Of a stretch of 64,000 nt of DNA, positions 13,616-42,230 are shown in pieces; position 1 is the stretch's first letter, and each line of letters starts with the position of its first letter. The position numbers and the translations under genes were made by a program. The notes beneath the pieces are model-generated. The model saw only the letters and a program-made list of their open reading frames with translations, ran no database searches and was not told where the DNA came from. The DNA is from a virus, in IMG/VR virus record IMGVR_UViG_3300024518_005299, positions 67,681 to 131,680 of that record. The stretch is one strand, 5' to 3'.

Positions 13616-13866
13616 TAGACAAATACGAACAAGCACTACAAGAAATGGAAGAGGACGACCCTCCTATCGATCCGCTTTATGGTATTCTATTTCTAGATGA
13701 TTTGGGGGAGGTTCGCAAGATAGTGATGCATGATCGTCGAGACTTCCTTAATGTCTTTCGTTTGTTTGATAGTTGGGAGCCTTGCGATGGTGCAGTGATG
13801 TGCTATTGGGAAAGAGAGTCTTTGCAGGATTGGGAAGAAGGCTTGGCAATAATGGAGGGGCGATGA
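13612..13866 (+). CDS. hypothetical protein
   Basis: Coupled ORF. Confidence 0.5.
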   Translation: MIDKYEQALQEMEEDDPPIDPLYGILFLDDLGEVRKIVMHDRRDFLNVFRLFDSWEPCDGAVMCYWERESLQDWEEGLAIMEGR

Positions 13867-15005
13867 TTCCTCTTTTTAAAGTCCGTATGTCTGATCGTGC
13901 CCCTAGTGATGTTGCTAAGGTATTACGTAGTGGTTATATAGGTGAAGGTCCTAAGGTTAAAGAGTTTGAGGCGCAACTAGAGAAGCTTCTTGCGCCAAAG
14001 AACAAACTGTTCAGCCGTCCTGTAGTCGTAACTAATAGTGCGACATCAGCAGAGCATTTAGCTTATAGATTATTAAAAGACAGTAAGGATATTTCTGCAG
14101 GCGATGAAGTGCTAGCGACACCATTGACCTGTATAGCTACTAACTTTCCCATCTTGGCAAATGGCTTGCATATCAAATGGGTAGATATTGATCCAACTAC
14201 TATGAATATGGATCTAGATGATCTCGCGCGTAAGATCACTCCTAGAACTAAAGCAATCTCTATTGTTCATTGGGGTGGCTATCCATTAGATTTGAATCGC
14301 ATCGATGATATTAGGCAACTAGCACAAGAAAAGATAGGCGTGTTTCCTGCATTGATCCAGGACTGCGCGCATGCATTAGGTAGTACGTTCCACAAAGAGC
14401 CTTTATGCAGATGGGGTGACTTCTCTACCTATAGCTTCCAAGCCATTAAACATCTGACATGTGGGGATGGAGGAGCTTTAGTTTCGTCCTACACGGCATG
14501 GAATAGAGAAGCCAAGCTGCTGCGCTGGTATGGCATTAACCGTGACGGTCCGCGCACAGATTTTAGGTGTGAGAACGATATTCCTAAATGGGGGTATAAG
14601 TTCAACATGAACGACATCGCGGCTACGATCGGTCTTGCTAATCTTCCTCTTCTAGATGATACTTTAAGAACACATAGGAGCAATGCTTGGTTTTATAATA
14701 ATGAGCTACTCGACATCCCCGGTGTGACATTGCTTAAGTACAAAGAAGGGTTTGATTCGGCTTATTGGCTTTATACTATTCGTGTCGAGGATCGCGCAGG
14801 GTTTATGAAGATGATGAAGAAAAAGGAAGTAGAGGTCAGTAGAGTCCACGACCGTAATGACAAACACTCTTGTGTGGACCAATATCGCACTCTGCTCCCG
14901 AATCTAGATGCCGTATGTCAGGATATGATTTGTATCCCCGTGGGTTGGTGGGTGACGCCAAAACACAGGCAATATATTGTTAATTGCATCAAGGGTGGTT
15001 GGTGA
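13863..15005 (+). CDS. DegT/DnrJ/EryC1/StrS PLP-dependent sugar aminotransferase (Lys-type)
   Basis: MIPLFKV start, QDCAHALG, SFQAIKHLTCGDGG, GYKFNMNDI. Confidence 0.9.
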   Translation: MIPLFKVRMSDRAPSDVAKVLRSGYIGEGPKVKEFEAQLEKLLAPKNKLFSRPVVVTNSATSAEHLAYRLLKDSKDISAGDEVLATPLTCIATNFPILANGLHIKWVDIDPTTMNMDLDDLARKITPRTKAISIVHWGGYPLDLNRIDDIRQLAQEKIGVFPALIQDCAHALGSTFHKEPLCRWGDFSTYSFQAIKHLTCGDGGALVSSYTAWNREAKLLRWYGINRDGPRTDFRCENDIPKWGYKFNMNDIAATIGLANLPLLDDTLRTHRSNAWFYNNELLDIPGVTLLKYKEGFDSAYWLYTIRVEDRAGFMKMMKKKEVEVSRVHDRNDKHSCVDQYRTLLPNLDAVCQDMICIPVGWWVTPKHRQYIVNCIKGGW

Positions 15006-25297: not shown

Positions 25298-26008
25298 TTG
25301 TCAGACAAGATGAATATGCCACTTCCCAAATATAAACATGGTGTTTATTTAATACGCAATATTATTAGCAACGATCCTCATGCTTGCTATATTGGTAGCG
25401 CCTCTGGTCATGGCTTCAAAAGTCGTTGGGGCGACCATGTGCGAGACGCTAAGAATCAAAAACATCATTCAATAATATTTCAACGAGCATGGAATAAGTA
25501 TGGTAGAGATGCGTTTATGTTTGAAGTTTTGCTTTATTGTGATCCAGAGCATTGTATAATGTATGAACAATTAAGTATGGATCATTATCAACCCAAGTAT
25601 AATATTTGCAAGATTGCCGGTAGTAGTCTTGGCGTAAAAAGATCTGAAGAATGTAAAAGAAAAATCAGTGAATCAAAAAAGGGTAATAAAAATTCTTTAG
25701 GTATAAAACCATCAGAAGATACAAAAAGAAAAATTAGCTCGTCTTTAAAAGGCAGATTTGGTAAAGAGAAACATCCTATGTGGGGCAAATCTCATTCAGA
25801 AGAATCTCGAAGGAAAATAGCTATAGCTAAAACTGGTTTGAAGGGTGAAAGCGCTGGCAATAGCAAGCTTACCATTAAGCAAGTTAGAGAAATTAGACAA
25901 ATGATAAATGATGGCATGAGACGTATTGATATAGCATCAAAATTTGGCGTATCTCCTGTAACTATTGGAGATATTAAATCTGGAAAAAGTTGGAATGGTG
26001 TCATATGA
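25298..26008 (+). CDS. GIY-YIG homing endonuclease with NUMOD3 repeats (start may be ATG 25310)
   Basis: GVYLIRN...CYIGSA, RSEECKRKIS, HSEESRRKIA. Confidence 0.85.
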   Translation: MSDKMNMPLPKYKHGVYLIRNIISNDPHACYIGSASGHGFKSRWGDHVRDAKNQKHHSIIFQRAWNKYGRDAFMFEVLLYCDPEHCIMYEQLSMDHYQPKYNICKIAGSSLGVKRSEECKRKISESKKGNKNSLGIKPSEDTKRKISSSLKGRFGKEKHPMWGKSHSEESRRKIAIAKTGLKGESAGNSKLTIKQVREIRQMINDGMRRIDIASKFGVSPVTIGDIKSGKSWNGVI

Positions 26009-27180
26009 GTAAGCGATATTCGTTAGGGTCAACTAGTATTGGTGAACTAGAAAAGAAATACGTCAATGAAGTTCTAGATGAAAACTACGTAAGCCCAGGC
26101 CCTGTAGTTAAACATGTAGAAGAAGAATGCGCAAGGCTCCATGGTATGAAGCATGGATTGGCGCTAAACTCTGGTCAGGCAGCTATTCATGTGGCTATTC
26201 AGGCTATCGTAGAGACCAAACTTAAGTCTGGTAAGGAAAAACCATTGGTGGCTGTGCCCGCCTGTACCTATATCTCTACTCTAGCTGCCGCTGTTCTTGC
26301 TGGCTGTGATCTTATTCTAGTTGATGTAGAAGAAGACACTGGCAATATGTGTCCTAATCAATTAAAGGAAACCTTAGAGCGTCATAAAAAACAAGGTGAT
26401 CCTATCGATATTGTGATCCCGGTGCATCTTTATGGTCGGGCGTGTAACCCACGGATTTTTACCATTTGTGAAGAGTTTGGCGTATGGGTAGTGGAGGATG
26501 CTTGTGAGTCGACTTTCGCACTAGGTATTGGCAAAGGTCATATTCTTACAACCTCCTTCTTTTCGAATCACTTGATTTCTGCTGGTGGCGGAGGGGTTAT
26601 AATGACCAACGATTCGCAACTAGATGAGTATTGTTGGAAGTTAATCAATCACGGGCGTAGTGCTCGCTTTGGCAATAATGATATCCATCAGATTGCGGAT
26701 AAGTTTTGCTTCGATATATTTGGTCATTCGATGAAGTGGTCTGACCTACCCGCCGCGCTTGCTAAGGCGCAAATAGAAAGAAAAAATGAGTTATATGGGA
26801 TTCGTCGTAGAAATGCTAAAGAATTAATTGCTATTCTGGAAGATTGGAAAGATTATATTATACTTCCATTATTAGATGATCATACTTTTATGATGTTTAT
26901 GATCACTCTTCAAGAACCATTAGATGTAAATAATGTTATTCGATATCTCAATGACAATAGTATTGAGGTTAGAAGAGCTATGCCAATTACAAATCAAAAA
27001 GTGGTTAGAGAATATTTTGGCAATAATGATCTAGTAAAGGAATTCCCAGTTGCAGATTTTCTTAATCGACAATCGTTTTATATTGGTGTTCATCCGGAGT
27101 TATCGTTGGACGATATACAAGATATGGGTAGTACTGTTTCTGAAGCTCTCAGGGGAGAAATTAATAGAGTAGAAGCGTAA
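26005..27180 (+). CDS. DegT-family PLP enzyme with His at the catalytic Lys position (ColD-like sugar 3-dehydratase candidate)
   Basis: [20 protein letters not shown]; His aligns with Lys in SFQAIKHL of 13863. Confidence 0.75.
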
Positions 27181-27827
27181 TGGGAAAATTCATAGATCTG
27201 ACAGGAGAGATATTTAGCAGGTTAACTGTTTTGCGTTATGTCAGTAATAATACATGGGGTAATGCTCAATTTTTATGTGAATGTAGCTGTCTCGCTAAAA
27301 CACAAGTAGTAGTTACTGGATGCAACTTGCGTTCTGGCAATACCAAATCTTGTGGATGTTTACAAAAAGAAGCAAGAGTGAAATTTACATACATGCATAC
27401 AACACATGGTGCTAGTAAAAATGGATATCATACTAAAGAATATAGATGTTGGCGACGTATTAAAGAAAGGTGTTATAATCCAAATCATGAACATTACGAG
27501 CATTATGGAGATAGGGGTATTACTATGTGCTCAGAATGGCTTAATTCTTACTCCACCTTTTTAAAAGACGTAGGCGAGGCGCCAACTCCTAAGCATTCCA
27601 TTGACCGCATTAATACCAATGGTAATTATGAACCTGGTAATTGTAGATGGGCCACTCCAACGGAACAGGCTAATAATAAAAGAAATAATTTAGTGATAGA
27701 GGATAAGACTTTGGCTCAAATTTGTAAAGAAAAAGACTTACCATATGCTTCTATTCATGCTAGAATTAAAAAACTCAATTGGTCAATTGAAGAGGCAATC
27801 AATACACCCATAGGACAAAAACGATGA
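27180..27827 (+). CDS. HNH homing endonuclease, paralogue of 4003
   Basis: [39 protein letters not shown]. Confidence 0.85.
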
Positions 27828-29950
27828 TTTATGATAATTCAACTATTCTGATCACTGGAGCTGGGGGGTTCCTCGGTCATCATACAGTTAAAGCGTTTAA
27901 AGAGTATAAAAACGGTGGGACTAATGGTGCTCGTAAGGGTATAAAAATTTTGATGCCAACACATAATGAATTAGATCTTTTAGAAGAAGATGACATTTCT
28001 TGTTATATGACAGAACATCAACCTGATATCGTTATTCATCTAGCTGCTATATGTGGTGGGATCGGAGCTAATAGGGAAAGACCAGGAGAGTTTTTGTATA
28101 ATAACCTTATAATGACTACGAACTTGATTGAATGGTGTGCCCGTCTAACTCGTAATCAGGATGGTCCTACTATTCATAAGTTTGTTGGTGTTGGTACTGT
28201 GTGCTTTACATCTGATGCATTTATCAAAACTGGGAATAGTTATACTACTATTGATAACATTTCTTTAGATCATAAAGTTAGTAGTAGAAATTTTGCCGAT
28301 TGTTCTGTAGTCGACATTTTTGAAAGACAATATTCAGGTAATTTATATCATATTAGACCATATGGGGCGGAAACGTTGACGGTTACTTCCGAGCATCCAT
28401 TTTTAGTTCTTAGGAATCAAAATGAAATATGGGTTGAAGCACAAGATATAGTGGATACTGATAGATTAGTCATACCTATTTATAAACCGACTAAAAGATC
28501 GACAGTTGTACGGATTCCTCAATTCGAATGTAAATATCCGGTTGCTAATCTAAAAAATACTCATCCGTATCATTTACCATCTGAGTTAGTTGTTGATAAA
28601 AATATTGCTCGACTATTTGGATGGTTCCTAGCAGAAGGATGTACTAATAAACAAGGTATTAACTTATATTTTGGTGATGAGCCAGATCAAATTCGGGATA
28701 TTGCCGACATTACTCATCAATTAGGTTTTAGTTCTCAACCAAAAAATATTCCAAACCAAAAGGGATCACGTTTAGATGTTAATAGCTACCAATTGAGAGA
28801 TTTTTGTCGTCAACATTTTTATACAAGTCAAGAAATTCATCGCTCCCACACTAAGAAAATTCCTGATTTTGTTTTCAGTTTACCAGATCAGCTACAGTTA
28901 GTCTTTCTGAGAAGTTTTATAGATGGAGATGGCCATATTGAGTATGATTCTCGTAATCAAAAATTGAAATCAATACAAATTACTACCACATCTAGGTGCT
29001 TAGCATACCAGATAAGAGATATCATGTTACATTATGGCATATTTGGTAATATTCATCATAGATCAGCTCCAGGAATAGCTAAAATTTGTGGACGTTACGT
29101 TAATGCCCGTGAATCGTGGGTAGTTAAATGGACCGGACAAAATCTTACGAAGCTTTCAACATTGATATATCCAGAATTAGATGATCAAACAGCTAGGAAA
29201 AGTAGATGGGACGTTGTTGTTTGTGAAAATAGAGCGTATGTACCCATCTACCCTATTACTACTAGTCAATCTACTCTGAGTGTTTATAATTTTGGAACCG
29301 TTGACGAAACCTATACTGCTAACGGTGTTGTAGTTCATAATTGTAGTTATCCTAAACACACTCCTATTCCCTTTCGGGAAGAAAACCTATATAATGGGTA
29401 TCCAGAGGAGACAAACGCACCGTACGGGATAGCAAAACGAGTGCAACTAGAGATGTTAAAAGCATATCGCGCCCAATATGGGTTTAATGGCATCTATTTA
29501 ATACCAGTAAATATGTGTGGCGAGTGGGATAATTTTGATGACTCTAGTAGCCATGTTATCCCTGCTATGCTTAAGAAGTTCCATCGTGCTAAGATGGAGA
29601 ACGCATCTAGTGTCACATTATGGGGTGATGGTTCAGCATCAAGAGAATTTTTATACGCAGGGGACTGCGCCGATGCTATTTTAAGAGCCACTTTACTATA
29701 TGATGACTCTGAGCCAGTTAATATAGGCACAGGTAATGAAGTCACCATCAAGGAACTTGCTGAAAAAGTAAGAAAAGTAGTGGGATATGAGGGGGTAATC
29801 CTGTGGGATATTAGTAAACCTAACGGGCAGCCTCGACGTTGCCTAGACACTAGTCGTGCTCGCGTTGGCTTTGGTTTTACTGCTAAAACCCCCTTGGATG
29901 ACATGCTAGATCGTAGTTATACGTGGGCGCAGGAGAATGGAGTATTATGA
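27824..29950 (+). CDS. fcl: GDP-L-fucose synthase / ColC-like epimerase-reductase, intein-containing
   Basis: [19 protein letters not shown]; spliced GTV-CSYPK; [29 protein letters not shown]. Confidence 0.9.
28202..29341 (+). mobile_element. Intein (380 aa) with LAGLIDADG endonuclease in fcl
   Basis: Starts CFTSDAFI; VTSEHPF; [19 protein letters not shown]; ends VVHN before Cys+1. Confidence 0.92.
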
Positions 29951-30441
29951 TGGGTAAGTTGATTGATCTAATAAATAATAAATTTGATCGACTTCTTGTT
30001 GTATGTAGGGCGTCTAATAATAAACATAAACAAGTTATGTGGGGCTGCCAATGTGATTGTGGTAATACCTTATTGGTTTCTTCATGCAACTTGCGCTCTC
30101 AACACACTCGCTCTTGTGGATGTTTAGCTAGTGAAACAACATCTGAGCGATCATCAACACATGGGTGTTCGCGGGTTGGGAAAATGACCAAAGAATACAA
30201 GACATGGCGTAAGATGAAAGAAAGGTGTGGTAATGAAAATCATATGAATTATCATTATTACGGTGGTCGTGGTATTCAAGTTTGTGATAGGTGGAAAGCA
30301 TCATTTGAGAATTTTCTAACAGACATGGGGGAGGCGCCGACCTCTCAACATTCGATCGATCGTATTAATAATCACGGTCATTATGAACCATCTAATTGTC
30401 GATGGGCTACAGCAAAAGAGCAGGCTAATAATAGAGGTTAA
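29947..30441 (+). CDS. HNH homing endonuclease, paralogue of 4003 (short form)
   Basis: [39 protein letters not shown]. Confidence 0.85.
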   Translation: MMGKLIDLINNKFDRLLVVCRASNNKHKQVMWGCQCDCGNTLLVSSCNLRSQHTRSCGCLASETTSERSSTHGCSRVGKMTKEYKTWRKMKERCGNENHMNYHYYGGRGIQVCDRWKASFENFLTDMGEAPTSQHSIDRINNHGHYEPSNCRWATAKEQANNRG

Positions 30442-30444
30442 GCA

Positions 30445-31512
30445 ATGAAACAGATCACAGCAATCATTACCGGAATTTTCGGCCAAGATGGATTCTACCT
30501 AGCCAAATTACTATTAGAAAAGGGTTATAAAGTAATTGGCATTCAGCGTCGTACAAGTTCATCAACCGGTTGGCGTCTGACGGATATTCCTAATTATGAG
30601 GAAAAGTGCGCAAAAGGTCAATTAATCGTTGAACCAGGTGATATCACTGACCTCTCTTCTATCGCGCGTATTGTGGCAGCTTATAAGCCTGCTGAATTTT
30701 ATAACCTAGCTGCCCAGTCTCACGTATGGCACTCATTCAAAAGCCCACTATCAACATTGGAGATTACTGGTAATGGTGCTGCTATTTGTTTAGAGGCGGT
30801 TCGACAATTTGCTCCTGATTGTAGGTTTTATCAAGCTGGGAGTTCAGAGCAATTTGGCAATAGCGCAATATTTGGTAAAGATAAGCCAGAAGAGGGCGTG
30901 GTATTCGAACGTGTTTTAAATGAAGACTCACCTATGTTACCCCGCTCACCCTATGGCTGTGCGAAGCTAACCGCTTATACCATGACGAGAAACTACCGAG
31001 AGGCATATGGTATGTTCGCGGTAGCTGGTATACTTTTTAATCATGAGAGTCCTTATCGTGGGATTGAGTTCGTTACTCGTAAAATTACTGATGGCATAGC
31101 ATCTATTATGGCTGGTGAGCGAGAGTTTATTGAACTTGGCAATCTAGATGCCTATCGTGACTGGGGAGAGGCTTCAGATTATATGCGAGCTGCATGGATG
31201 ATGCTTCAACAGGATGAGCCAAAGGACTACGTTATATCTATGGGGAAGACACATAGCATTCGTGACTTTTTAGATCTCGCATTTAGCTATCTCCATATTG
31301 ATGATTGGAGTGAGTATGTTAGGATTAATCCAGAGTTTGTACGCCCATCTGAGATTGATGTATTGATCGGTGATTCAACTAGAGCACGTCAAGAATTAGG
31401 TTGGAAACCCAACTATTCTTTCCAGTATTTAGTTTATAGTATGATCTATAGAGACTGTTTGAGGAAGGGTGTAGTAGATAAAATTAAAAAGCATGTTTTT
31501 ATCGACAGCTAA
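30445..31512 (+). CDS. gmd: GDP-mannose 4,6-dehydratase
   Basis: ITGIFGQDGFYLA, YNLAAQSHV, FYQAGSSE, PRSPYGCAK, LFNHESP, FVTRKI, GNLDAYRDWG. Confidence 0.95.
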   Translation: MKQITAIITGIFGQDGFYLAKLLLEKGYKVIGIQRRTSSSTGWRLTDIPNYEEKCAKGQLIVEPGDITDLSSIARIVAAYKPAEFYNLAAQSHVWHSFKSPLSTLEITGNGAAICLEAVRQFAPDCRFYQAGSSEQFGNSAIFGKDKPEEGVVFERVLNEDSPMLPRSPYGCAKLTAYTMTRNYREAYGMFAVAGILFNHESPYRGIEFVTRKITDGIASIMAGEREFIELGNLDAYRDWGEASDYMRAAWMMLQQDEPKDYVISMGKTHSIRDFLDLAFSYLHIDDWSEYVRINPEFVRPSEIDVLIGDSTRARQELGWKPNYSFQYLVYSMIYRDCLRKGVVDKIKKHVFIDS

Positions 31513-40086: not shown

Positions 40087-40422
40087 ATGTCGGATCGTAA
40101 ATTAGAGTTATCTTATAAGATACAAGAACGAATCTTAATAGAGACTCGACAAGAGCTACAAGATGCGTTGGCAAATTTATTGGCTAGTCAAAATGAGGTT
40201 GATGTCTTAAATGAAAAAGTTATTGCATTAACTGAATATAAAAAGAAAACTGTAGACTCTTTCTTAAAAGAAGCAAGGAGCATCATTGATAATCAAAAGA
40301 TGACCATTGCTGCACAAGCAGAAAAAATCAAAATGCTACAGACTAGGGTACAAAACGTAAGTAGAGAATATAACGAAGCCTATTCCAGAAGATCACCTAT
40401 TACATGGTCCGAAGATAAATGA
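40087..40422 (+). CDS. coiled-coil hypothetical protein
   Basis: Heptad pattern. Confidence 0.6.
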   Translation: MSDRKLELSYKIQERILIETRQELQDALANLLASQNEVDVLNEKVIALTEYKKKTVDSFLKEARSIIDNQKMTIAAQAEKIKMLQTRVQNVSREYNEAYSRRSPITWSEDK

Positions 40423-42230
40423 CAATTGAAGTTAAAATTATAGAAGATTCTATTAGTCCAACTAGAGCACGCCTGACAACCTTTCAATTGAGGTATCCTA
40501 GGTTTATACATTGTTTTGATGAACAAACTGAATTTTTATCTCAAATTAATGACGAGATTCCTCGGTTTAGATCATTTACTGCGATTAAACAGCTTCAATG
40601 TAAGATTGCCCAATATGAAGAGAGTGGAACAATATCATTTGTTTATCCAATGCGCGCTATTGAATCAACATATAGCGGTGATATGATAACTTTTGATAAG
40701 AAAAAATTCTCAATGAGCACTACAGATGAACATCGTATATTTACCTTACGTCGTACTACAAACAACGTGTATTTACCAAATGTTGATTTGGCTAAGAATT
40801 TTGTTGAATCTTATATTGCTCATCGCCGTATTCCTCAAGCTGGGAGTTTATGCCAGACAGCTAGACAATACGATAATCCAGACGAAGCACAACTTATTGC
40901 ATTTTATGTAGCAGATGGGCATCGACCCAAAGCGGGTGCGCAGGTACAATTTCATTTTCGTAAACAACGTAAGATTAATAGGGTGTGTTTACTTTTGAAT
41001 ACCTTAGGAATTAATTATACTAAAGCTAACTATGGCAAAGATACCGTGATTAGATTTGATACTCCAGAATGGGTATCTGATTGTTATGATAATAATGGAA
41101 TCAAACAATATCCAGATAGACTATATGGTATGACGTCTCGTGCCTTTGATGCATTTAAATTAGGCACTTTAGAATCTGATGGTTGTGAGGCTAATTCTGA
41201 AATAAATACAACATCTGTAGTTGCCGCCGAACAAATTCAAACACTGGCGTTATTGAATGGTATAGCGATGAACATCAGATCTTATCGTCAAAATGGTTAT
41301 ATCTCGTTGTATAAACAAACATATCAACAATACCCATACATTAGTCTACGTCCAGATAAAGATAAATTTCAAATATCCTCAGTAACTGATCAGGCGGTGT
41401 ATTGTTTTACGGTACCATCCAATTATTTAGTAGTCAGACGTAATGGCGTTGCTTATATTTCGGGTAATTGTGAGGTAATGACGCACAGAACTTGGAGCAG
41501 GAACGCTTCATCTAGTCGCGCCATCCCCGCTAAGAAGCTTTTCGATATTATTGAGAAGGAGCCAGCACTACCTATCCATTGGGGTAAGAATCAAAAAGGA
41601 ATGCAGGCTAATGAAGAAATGGACGCCTTCCAGGCTCGTGCCTGCGAGGAGCTATGGTTAGAGGCAAGAGATAATGCGTTAGCAATAGCGCGCTCTTTAG
41701 AAAGTATGGGGCTGCATAAACAAGTTGTTAACCGTATGATGGAACCCTGGGCGCATATTTCTGTAGTTTGCACAGCTACTGAATTTGACAATTTCTTTTT
41801 TTTACGCTGCCATCCAGCTGCTCAACCCGAGATGAGGGAATTAGCGGAGCAAATGGCGGATCTATATTTTAGTAATACACCACGTCGCCTTAATATAGGG
41901 CAGTGGCACCTACCATATATAAAAGATGAAGAAAGATTTGCGCCTGGTAATTATAATAAACGTGGTGGGTTAAAAAATGAAGGTAGGTTAATCAAAGCAT
42001 CTACTGCTCGATGTGCACGAGTATCTTACTTGACACACGATAAGAAAGAACCAGATATAGATGTAGATGTTGCATTGCACGATCGCTTGTTGAGTGATAA
42101 ACATATGTCTGCCTTCGAACATTGCGCCACCCCTAATGTTGATCCGTCTGTCCATAGTGGAAATTTTAAAGGCTGGATCCAGTACAGAAAAATGCTCAAG
42201 AATGAGCAATGCACCAATTATGAGCGATAA
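40419..42230 (+). CDS. thyX: flavin-dependent thymidylate synthase, intein-containing
   Basis: Spliced RYPRFIH-CEVMTHRTWSRNASSSRAIP; NRMMEPW, AQPEM, SAFEH. Confidence 0.9.
   Translation: MTIEVKIIEDSISPTRARLTTFQLRYPRFIHCFDEQTEFLSQINDEIPRFRSFTAIKQLQCKIAQYEESGTISFVYPMRAIESTYSGDMITFDKKKFSMSTTDEHRIFTLRRTTNNVYLPNVDLAKNFVESYIAHRRIPQAGSLCQTARQYDNPDEAQLIAFYVADGHRPKAGAQVQFHFRKQRKINRVCLLLNTLGINYTKANYGKDTVIRFDTPEWVSDCYDNNGIKQYPDRLYGMTSRAFDAFKLGTLESDGCEANSEINTTSVVAAEQIQTLALLNGIAMNIRSYRQNGYISLYKQTYQQYPYISLRPDKDKFQISSVTDQAVYCFTVPSNYLVVRRNGVAYISGNCEVMTHRTWSRNASSSRAIPAKKLFDIIEKEPALPIHWGKNQKGMQANEEMDAFQARACEELWLEARDNALAIARSLESMGLHKQVVNRMMEPWAHISVVCTATEFDNFFFLRCHPAAQPEMRELAEQMADLYFSNTPRRLNIGQWHLPYIKDEERFAPGNYNKRGGLKNEGRLIKASTARCARVSYLTHDKKEPDIDVDVALHDRLLSDKHMSAFEHCATPNVDPSVHSGNFKGWIQYRKMLKNEQCTNYER
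40512..41468 (+). mobile_element. Intein (319 aa) with LAGLIDADG-like endonuclease in thyX
   Basis: Starts CFDEQTEFL; TTDEHRI; LIAFYVADG; VYCFTVP; ends ISGN before Cys+1. Confidence 0.88.

Follow-up and report, generated by a model that had tools for sequence, protein, structure and literature searches.

A predicted 3,6-dideoxyhexose module built around a His-type DegT protein in a large marine phage

3,6-Dideoxyhexoses are antigenic sugars of bacterial O-antigens. Among DegT-family enzymes of nucleotide-sugar metabolism, what chiefly sets the 3-dehydratases E1, ColD and SpnQ apart from the aminotransferases is the exchange of Lys for His, and all characterized His-type members are 3-dehydratases; E1 and SpnQ, but not ColD, additionally carry a four-Cys [2Fe-2S] motif (PMC8987622). 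Published work on cyanophages has treated gmd and fcl as auxiliary genes for the cell wall or lipopolysaccharide (LPS), and a full-text search combining colitose with phage or virus terms returned no paper proposing a phage-encoded pathway to colitose or another 3,6-dideoxyhexose. Here, we describe a locus (positions 25,298 to 31,512) that encodes a His-type DegT protein within the final 64 kb of a 131,680-bp virus record of IMG/VR (IMGVR_UViG_3300024518_005299, positions 67,681 to 131,680). This whole stretch of 64,000 nucleotides is called the window below, and coordinates are given in its own numbering. The record (83% complete according to CheckV) has genes for a large terminase subunit and for a portal protein and therefore belongs to a tailed phage, which is marine.

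Besides the His-type DegT protein (hereafter DegT-His), the locus encodes a reductase resembling Fcl and a guanosine diphosphate (GDP)-mannose 4,6-dehydratase, Gmd. A preliminary description of the window had put these forward as a candidate complete pathway to GDP-colitose. The best explanation of our results is that the three proteins form one phage-borne nucleotide-sugar module working on GDP-mannose of the host, and we lean towards reading this module as a pathway to a GDP-linked 3,6-dideoxyhexose; that colitose itself is the product is a more tentative proposal. Judging from their sequences, the phage enzymes appear to be analogues, not orthologues, of the bacterial ColD and ColC. The genes on which the argument turns are the following.

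26005..27180, + strand: His-type DegT-family protein of 391 aa (PF01041, 1e-56), candidate sugar 3-dehydratase dependent on pyridoxamine 5′-phosphate (PMP)
26569..26571, + strand: His189 codon, aligned with the Schiff-base Lys of aminotransferases and with ColD His188; the residue before it is Asn188 (alignments)
27824..29950, + strand: Fcl-like gene including its intein (short-chain dehydrogenase/reductase, SDR, with a LAGLIDADG intein inside)
30445..31512, + strand: Gmd, GDP-mannose 4,6-dehydratase, 355 aa (PF16363, 364.7 bits)
13773..15005, + strand: second DegT protein, Lys-type, resembling CalS13/AtmS13 (PDB 4xau/4zwv 362 bits, CalS13 320 bits)

Translation of 26551-26592 places a His at codon 26569-26571 of DegT-His, and translation of 14433-14459 (SFQAIKHLT) places a Lys at 14448-14450 of the second DegT protein, both in agreement with the preliminary description. 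In HMMER alignments to solved structures, His189 took the column in which 7b0m and GDP-perosamine synthase (Per) have their Schiff-base Lys; the Schiff-base Lys of the Per, ArnB and PseC type of aminotransferase is thus missing, and His stands in its column. BLASTP against ColD of E. coli O111, taken from the annotated O-antigen cluster, paired His189 with His188, as had been anticipated, and Asn188 with Ser187. The likely start of the protein is ATG 26005 (MSKRYSLGS, with MKRFTLGS in homologues), which overlaps the stop codon of a GIY-YIG gene.

About 70 metagenomic homologues, 49-75% identical to DegT-His, were found on contigs of up to 183 kb. In an alignment of 84 sequences, 57 of them members of this family, the catalytic His was an invariant column (57/57 within the family), which rules out a chance substitution of Lys. 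S56, G57, D165 and S184 were invariant as well, and E168 was kept in at least 90% of the sequences; we take these five to be cofactor-binding positions of the DegT family. The AlphaFold2 model (predicted local distance difference test score, pLDDT, 96.5) showed a fold-type I, DegT/aspartate-aminotransferase-like fold. A Foldseek search with this model returned Per and ColD as the best characterized structural matches, with ColD (2gms) at rank 3 and a TM score of 0.83.

The iron–sulfur (Fe-S) motif of E1 reads RDWGRDCYCxxGCDNTC. DegT-His has no counterpart of it, the matching segment being devoid of Cys, which bears out an earlier remark that no such Cys-rich motif was evident and led us to reject membership of the E1 type. 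The Cys residues conserved in the family are 87, 101, 147, 167 and 210, each present in 49-56 of the 57 members, and Cys167 alone is also kept in distant His-type relatives. Two other viral contigs, L078 (5899-7080) and L081, do encode an E1-type 3-dehydratase in which the CYC...C motif for Fe-S is complete (321 bits against Yersinia E1), meaning that phages carry both mechanistic classes of sugar 3-dehydratase.

To place the protein in its family, we searched 1.8 billion cluster representatives exhaustively with HMMER and took the top 150 matches, of which nearly all those above ~120 bits were His-type. When the catalytic column was read in 260 rows (these matches together with the earlier homologues and reference proteins), it held His in 191, Lys in 66 and other residues in 3, and the Lys-type rows were confined to the weaker matches. 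One branch divided the His-type from the Lys-type proteins both in a FastTree tree of 189 rows (support 97) and in an IQ-TREE tree of 83 rows (support 96; posterior mean site frequency model, quick search), and the phage family fell on the His side in both. Both alignments retained the catalytic column itself, and the sample is biased towards the phage protein because rows were picked from its best matches. A convergent Lys-to-His change inside a Per-like aminotransferase lineage was rejected, since the trees need one change only.

The His side comprises two deep groups. The first contains the ColD orthologues (support 100), the type found in cyanophage S-CAM7 and the E1-like viral protein of L078; the second has 50 rows, the phage family among them. 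Across Pseudomonadota, Cyanobacteriota, Spirochaetota, Bacteroidota and Chlorobiota, true orthologues share 57-71% identity with the E. coli ColD. With an identity of 24% and a place in a different deep clade, DegT-His is therefore not a ColD orthologue. The phylogenetic check against ColD, Per and E1 types that had been suggested thus put it on the His side, with Per on the Lys side, and apart from the ColD clade; what survives of the label "ColD-like" is the His type and the position among 3-dehydratase-like proteins, not orthology. DegT-His may accordingly be described as His-type and 3-dehydratase-like, but not as ColD.

The Fcl-like protein shows a comparable pattern. It is an extended SDR with a 10-residue N-terminal insertion, 34-36% identical to both ColC and Fcl, and after splicing it retains the equivalents of Ser107 (as Thr), Cys109, Tyr136, Lys140 and His179. 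Against the NCBIfam equivalog model for Fcl (NF047922, cut-off 500 bits), intein-free homologues of the phage family scored 286-287 bits, E. coli ColC 311 and true Fcl 552, so that the phage-family proteins stay below the cut-off at about the distance of ColC. A tree of 31 Fcl-like proteins resolved the ColC orthologues (support 100), Fcl sensu stricto (including the Fcl of S-CAM7) and a third clade (support 99) made up of the phage family and of viral proteins from two loci, L032 and L038, that also encode a His-type DegT. The proposed ColC/Fcl-like reductase therefore stands as far as its five catalytic residues go, while its assignment to either named group does not: the protein groups with neither Fcl nor ColC. 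As the acid-base pair for epimerization is kept, an L-configured product is to be expected.

The Fcl-like gene is interrupted, and homing endonuclease genes lie around it, as follows.

25298..26008, + strand: GIY-YIG/NUMOD3 homing endonuclease gene, directly upstream of DegT-His (Pfam NUMOD3 3e-16, GIY-YIG 5e-5)
27180..27827, + strand: HNH homing endonuclease gene between the DegT and Fcl-like genes (phrog_374, 1e-65)
27824..28201, + strand: N-extein of the Fcl-like protein, aa 1-126, ending ...GVGTV (aligned with the intein-free L010 homologue and E. coli Fcl)
28202..29341, + strand: LAGLIDADG intein of 380 aa, aa 127-506 (Pfam Intein_splicing, LAGLIDADG_3; boundaries by alignment)
29342..29950, + strand: C-extein of the Fcl-like protein, the spliced product having 328 aa (alignment)
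29950..30441, + strand: second HNH homing endonuclease gene (phrog_374, 3e-66; the open reading frame, ORF, opens at GTG 29923, with ATG 29950 the likely start by comparison with the paralogue)

All genes between 25298 and 31512 thus lie on the + strand, and the statement that only HNH genes separate the DegT, Fcl-like and Gmd genes agrees with these matches. The intein begins with Cys (CFTSDAF), ends in His-Asn (VVHN) and is followed by Cys at +1, as expected of a class 1 intein with a homing endonuclease. It sits immediately before the Cys equivalent to Fcl Cys109, which doubles as the +1 nucleophile. No intein was present in the Fcl-like gene of the four related phage contigs examined, where the protein has 320-323 aa. 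Elsewhere in the window, a gene for a GT4-like glycosyltransferase (59-2593) also has an apparent intein (Hint_2, Intein_splicing and LAGLIDADG_3 at aa 226-590).

The order DegT-His, Fcl-like, Gmd was kept in L008 (126 kb) and L010 (183 kb), in the IMG/VR contigs L021 and L022, and in L116 (Logan SRR10018916), where the DegT protein is 36% identical to that of the window; the view of the three genes as one module is thereby sustained. The core genes are contiguous or overlapping in L008 and L010, and the small genes between them differ among relatives: the junction of the DegT and Fcl-like genes holds nothing in L010, L021 and L022, and a 146-aa ORF in L008. Because they vary or are missing in relatives, the HNH genes and the intein are best seen as mobile insertions in a fixed module. 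L116 reads correctly only when TAG is taken as Gln, and it has a PfkB sugar kinase gene between its Fcl-like and Gmd-like genes.

Other His-type DegT proteins of the second group also adjoin gmd in three bacterial metagenome-assembled genomes (MAGs; L011, L110 and L111), the gmd product of L011 being 47-49% identical to E. coli and phage Gmd, and in the viral contigs L026, L028, L031, L040 and L063; at most viral loci encoding a His-type DegT, gmd was absent within 6 kb. In four bacterial cluster representatives (P0142, P0171, P0191 and P0196), an N-terminal SDR domain is fused to the His-type DegT, and these SDR domains are closer to ColC/Fcl-type reductases than to Gmd, which ties His-type DegT proteins to a partner that reduces the 4-keto group. 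Fusions of other His-type DegT proteins involve GT2, GT4 or methyltransferase domains (P0141, P0154 and P0195).

In bacteria, the canonical order gmd, colC, colD was found at 8 of the 9 loci with a ColD orthologue. Since gene order differs and the proteins come from other clades, the phage module was assembled independently. Canonical ColD loci, with 59-65% identity to E. coli ColD, turned up in an uncultured Prochlorococcus single-cell genome (L107, with the full gmd, colC, colD) and in two cyanobacterial MAGs (L104, with colD and gmd only, and L112, with colC and colD only), so colitose may be a surface sugar of marine picocyanobacteria.

Gmd itself matched PF16363 over its full length and scored 358.6 bits against TIGR01472, whose cut-off is 415; it is 41% identical to E. 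coli Gmd, and the motifs S-x-E, YxxxK and NHESPYRG were recognized by eye. It is the only 4,6-dehydratase of the whole record, in which the SDR genes are gmd and the split Fcl-like gene only. A search of the same record did not find ManC, so that GDP-mannose must come from the host.

Upstream of the module, from 59 to ~20000, lies an island of genes for glycosyltransferases, methyltransferases, a GNAT protein and the second DegT. The latter resembles the nucleoside diphosphate (NDP)-4-keto-6-deoxyhexose 4-aminotransferases CalS13 and AtmS13 (362 bits), and so close a homologue of enediyne-sugar enzymes was unexpected in a marine phage. GT11 was not found in the record, a result that says little because the same search was silent in every control genome. 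Spurious overlapping frames aside, a simple hydropathy scan detected no multi-span membrane protein among the + strand ORFs of 1-44200, which hints weakly at a cytoplasmic sugar acceptor. Farther downstream, the ThyX (Thy1) domain of a 603-aa protein (40419-42230) is confined to aa 352-484, the long N-terminal part being without a family match. The glycosylation island of the related phage L008 encodes a 544-aa Rieske and Lactamase_B_3 protein (L008:1654-3288) that was not seen in the window.

Taken as a pathway, the module would begin with the formation of GDP-4-keto-6-deoxymannose by Gmd, the step for which homology is strong. DegT-His would then bind PMP and form a ketimine with the 4-keto sugar, and His189, acting as general base and acid, would expel the C3 hydroxyl to give GDP-4-keto-3,6-dideoxymannose; we infer this step from the diagnostic His, the placement in the trees and the neighbouring genes. 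As the E1-type Fe-S motif is missing, DegT-His is probably ColD-like in its cycle, with PMP regenerated from glutamate. The spliced Fcl-like enzyme, in which the Cys/His acid-base pair and the Ser/Thr-Tyr-Lys triad are kept, would epimerize C5 and reduce C4. This would yield a GDP-3,6-dideoxy-L-hexose, its L configuration being predicted from the retained residues, and GDP-L-colitose is the most likely candidate. Finally, a glycosyltransferase from among the many in the upstream island would pass the sugar to an acceptor.

Several findings weigh against this pathway. The residue before the catalytic His is not Ser as in ColD: the phage family reads S-N-H, and Asn188 is aminotransferase-like. 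A S187N/H188K double mutant of ColD (PDB entry 3gr9) reportedly gains transaminase activity. Foldseek cannot separate dehydratases from aminotransferases, and by sequence score in the HMMER comparison with solved structures, solved aminotransferases outrank ColD, to which DegT-His is only 24% identical. The second group contains no characterized or solved member, and its representative P0072 scored highest in the PDB with Per (206 bits) and E1 (198 bits), against 147 bits with ColD. In addition, the five family-conserved Cys residues are left unexplained, and the Fcl-like protein, lying outside the ColC clade, could equally be a fucose synthase. Some of these points would fit the idea that DegT-His is no 3-dehydratase at all, but a PMP-dependent transaminase without internal aldimine or an enzyme of some other 4-keto sugar chemistry: Asn188 recalls the G-N-K motif of aminotransferases, the clade has no characterized member, and SpnQ is known to transaminate in the absence of its reductase (PMC8987622). 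We nonetheless judge this unlikely, because every characterized His-type member is a 3-dehydratase (PMC8987622), a normal aminotransferase of the Lys type is already encoded by the phage, and the repeated association with a reductase is what a keto product, rather than an amino sugar, would lead one to expect. That DegT-His is a catalytically dead relic or scaffold is highly improbable; loss of the Schiff-base Lys would indeed inactivate an aminotransferase, but the His and the presumed cofactor positions are invariant or nearly so over the 84 sequences in a family only 49-76% identical to the window protein, the model is very confident and the His clade is large and conserved, and on the strength of this conservation we rejected a dead enzyme.

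The fate and the identity of the sugar leave room for two further explanations. Since the Lys-type DegT could conceivably aminate either 4-keto intermediate, the pathway might be branched: the Fcl-like protein would turn the Gmd product into GDP-L-fucose as an ordinary fucose synthase, and the product of DegT-His would pass to the Lys-type DegT, yielding a GDP-4-amino-3,4,6-trideoxyhexose of the 3-deoxyperosamine type, to be modified by the GNAT protein and methyltransferases of the island. Such a scheme accords with the resemblance of the Lys-type protein to NDP-4-keto-6-deoxyhexose 4-aminotransferases, with Gmd as the sole 4,6-dehydratase, with the GNAT and methyltransferase genes nearby, with the retention of every Fcl catalytic residue and with PDB 3dr7, a perosamine synthase with bound GDP-3-deoxyperosamine. 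However, the Lys-type gene lies 11 kb off, whereas the DegT-His, Fcl-like and Gmd genes are contiguous and overlapping in relatives; the Fcl-like protein falls outside the Fcl clade and below the equivalog cut-off, and the SDR-DegT fusions point to direct coupling of dehydratase and reductase, so that we regard branching as improbable. Less probable still is a different substrate, such as host cytidine diphosphate (CDP)- or thymidine diphosphate (dTDP)-4-keto-6-deoxyglucose or GDP-6-deoxyheptose, with the closeness of gmd being incidental. The scarcity of gmd near most viral His-type DegT genes, the PfkB kinase inside the L116 module and the score of Gmd below the TIGR01472 cut-off would allow for it, but synteny with gmd persists down to 36% identity, and Per and ColD, the best characterized structural matches, both use a GDP-linked substrate. 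The 3,6-dideoxyhexose pathway thus remains the reading we prefer.

If that reading is right, a function could be assigned to a large family of DegT proteins that is annotated as aminotransferases despite having no catalytic Lys. A phage-encoded route would also add 3,6-dideoxyhexoses to the sugars that viruses make themselves, and would help to explain what the large glycosylation island of this phage builds. More speculatively, and we hold this to be doubtful as a whole, the phage protein would give the first functional access to the large, uncharacterized second group, which may represent another family of NDP-sugar 3-dehydratases, independent of Fe-S and separate from ColD, E1 and SpnQ, with an Fcl-like lineage of its own, and whose 3,6-dideoxy sugar is put on the virion proteins of the phage in the cytoplasm rather than on host LPS, within an island of many glycosyltransferases.

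Compared with known systems, DegT-His has Per (PDB 3bn1, 3dr4) among its top matches in sequence and structure, and Per uses GDP-4-keto-6-deoxymannose; unlike DegT-His, it retains the Schiff-base Lys and falls among the Lys-type proteins in the tree. With E1 (RfbH/DdhC/AscC, CDP-6-deoxy-L-threo-D-glycero-4-hexulose 3-dehydrase) and SpnQ, the phage protein shares His in place of Lys and, as a predicted function, PMP-dependent deoxygenation at C3; it differs in having no [2Fe-2S] Cys motif, in that no E3-type reductase was seen, and in adjoining gmd instead of a CDP-glucose dehydratase gene. ColD (WbdK of E. coli O55/O111; PDB 2gms, 3b8x) is alike in its DegT fold, in His at the Lys position, in the missing Fe-S motif and in being encoded beside gmd and an Fcl-type reductase. 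The phage protein is nevertheless 24% identical to it, belongs to the other deep His-type clade and has Asn for Ser187, and the gene order is gmd, colC, colD in the ColD cluster and DegT, fcl-like, gmd in the phage. The Fcl-like protein resembles ColC and Fcl/WcaG as an extended SDR with the catalytic Ser/Thr, Cys, Tyr, Lys and His all present, and differs from them in its third clade (support 99), its N-terminal insertion and the intein at its catalytic Cys.

Among GenBank phages, megablast gave no match to the 10-kb region, and tblastn gave no phage protein above 26% identity. The gene type as such is already visible in databases: His-type DegT proteins were present in ~45 of the 80 IMG/VR loci examined, the ESM Atlas holds generic DegT clusters together with viral clusters automatically named '3-dehydrase', and Synechococcus phage S-CAM7 (KU686212), an isolate, encodes gmd, fcl, a 'putative CDP-4-keto-6-deoxy-D-glucose-3-dehydrase' and GT11 in that order. 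S-CAM7 thus has the same three enzyme types side by side, and its DegT also carries the His (FSFYFGHHMTT). Its DegT, however, groups with ColD (32% identity) and its Fcl with true Fcl; the DegT-His of the window is 24% identical to the S-CAM7 DegT, and the Fcl-like proteins of relatives are 38-39% identical to the S-CAM7 Fcl. What is new here, then, is that this phage lineage has non-orthologous enzymes from uncharacterized clades, in a module kept throughout a family of large marine phages and in which one catalytic motif is split by an intein.

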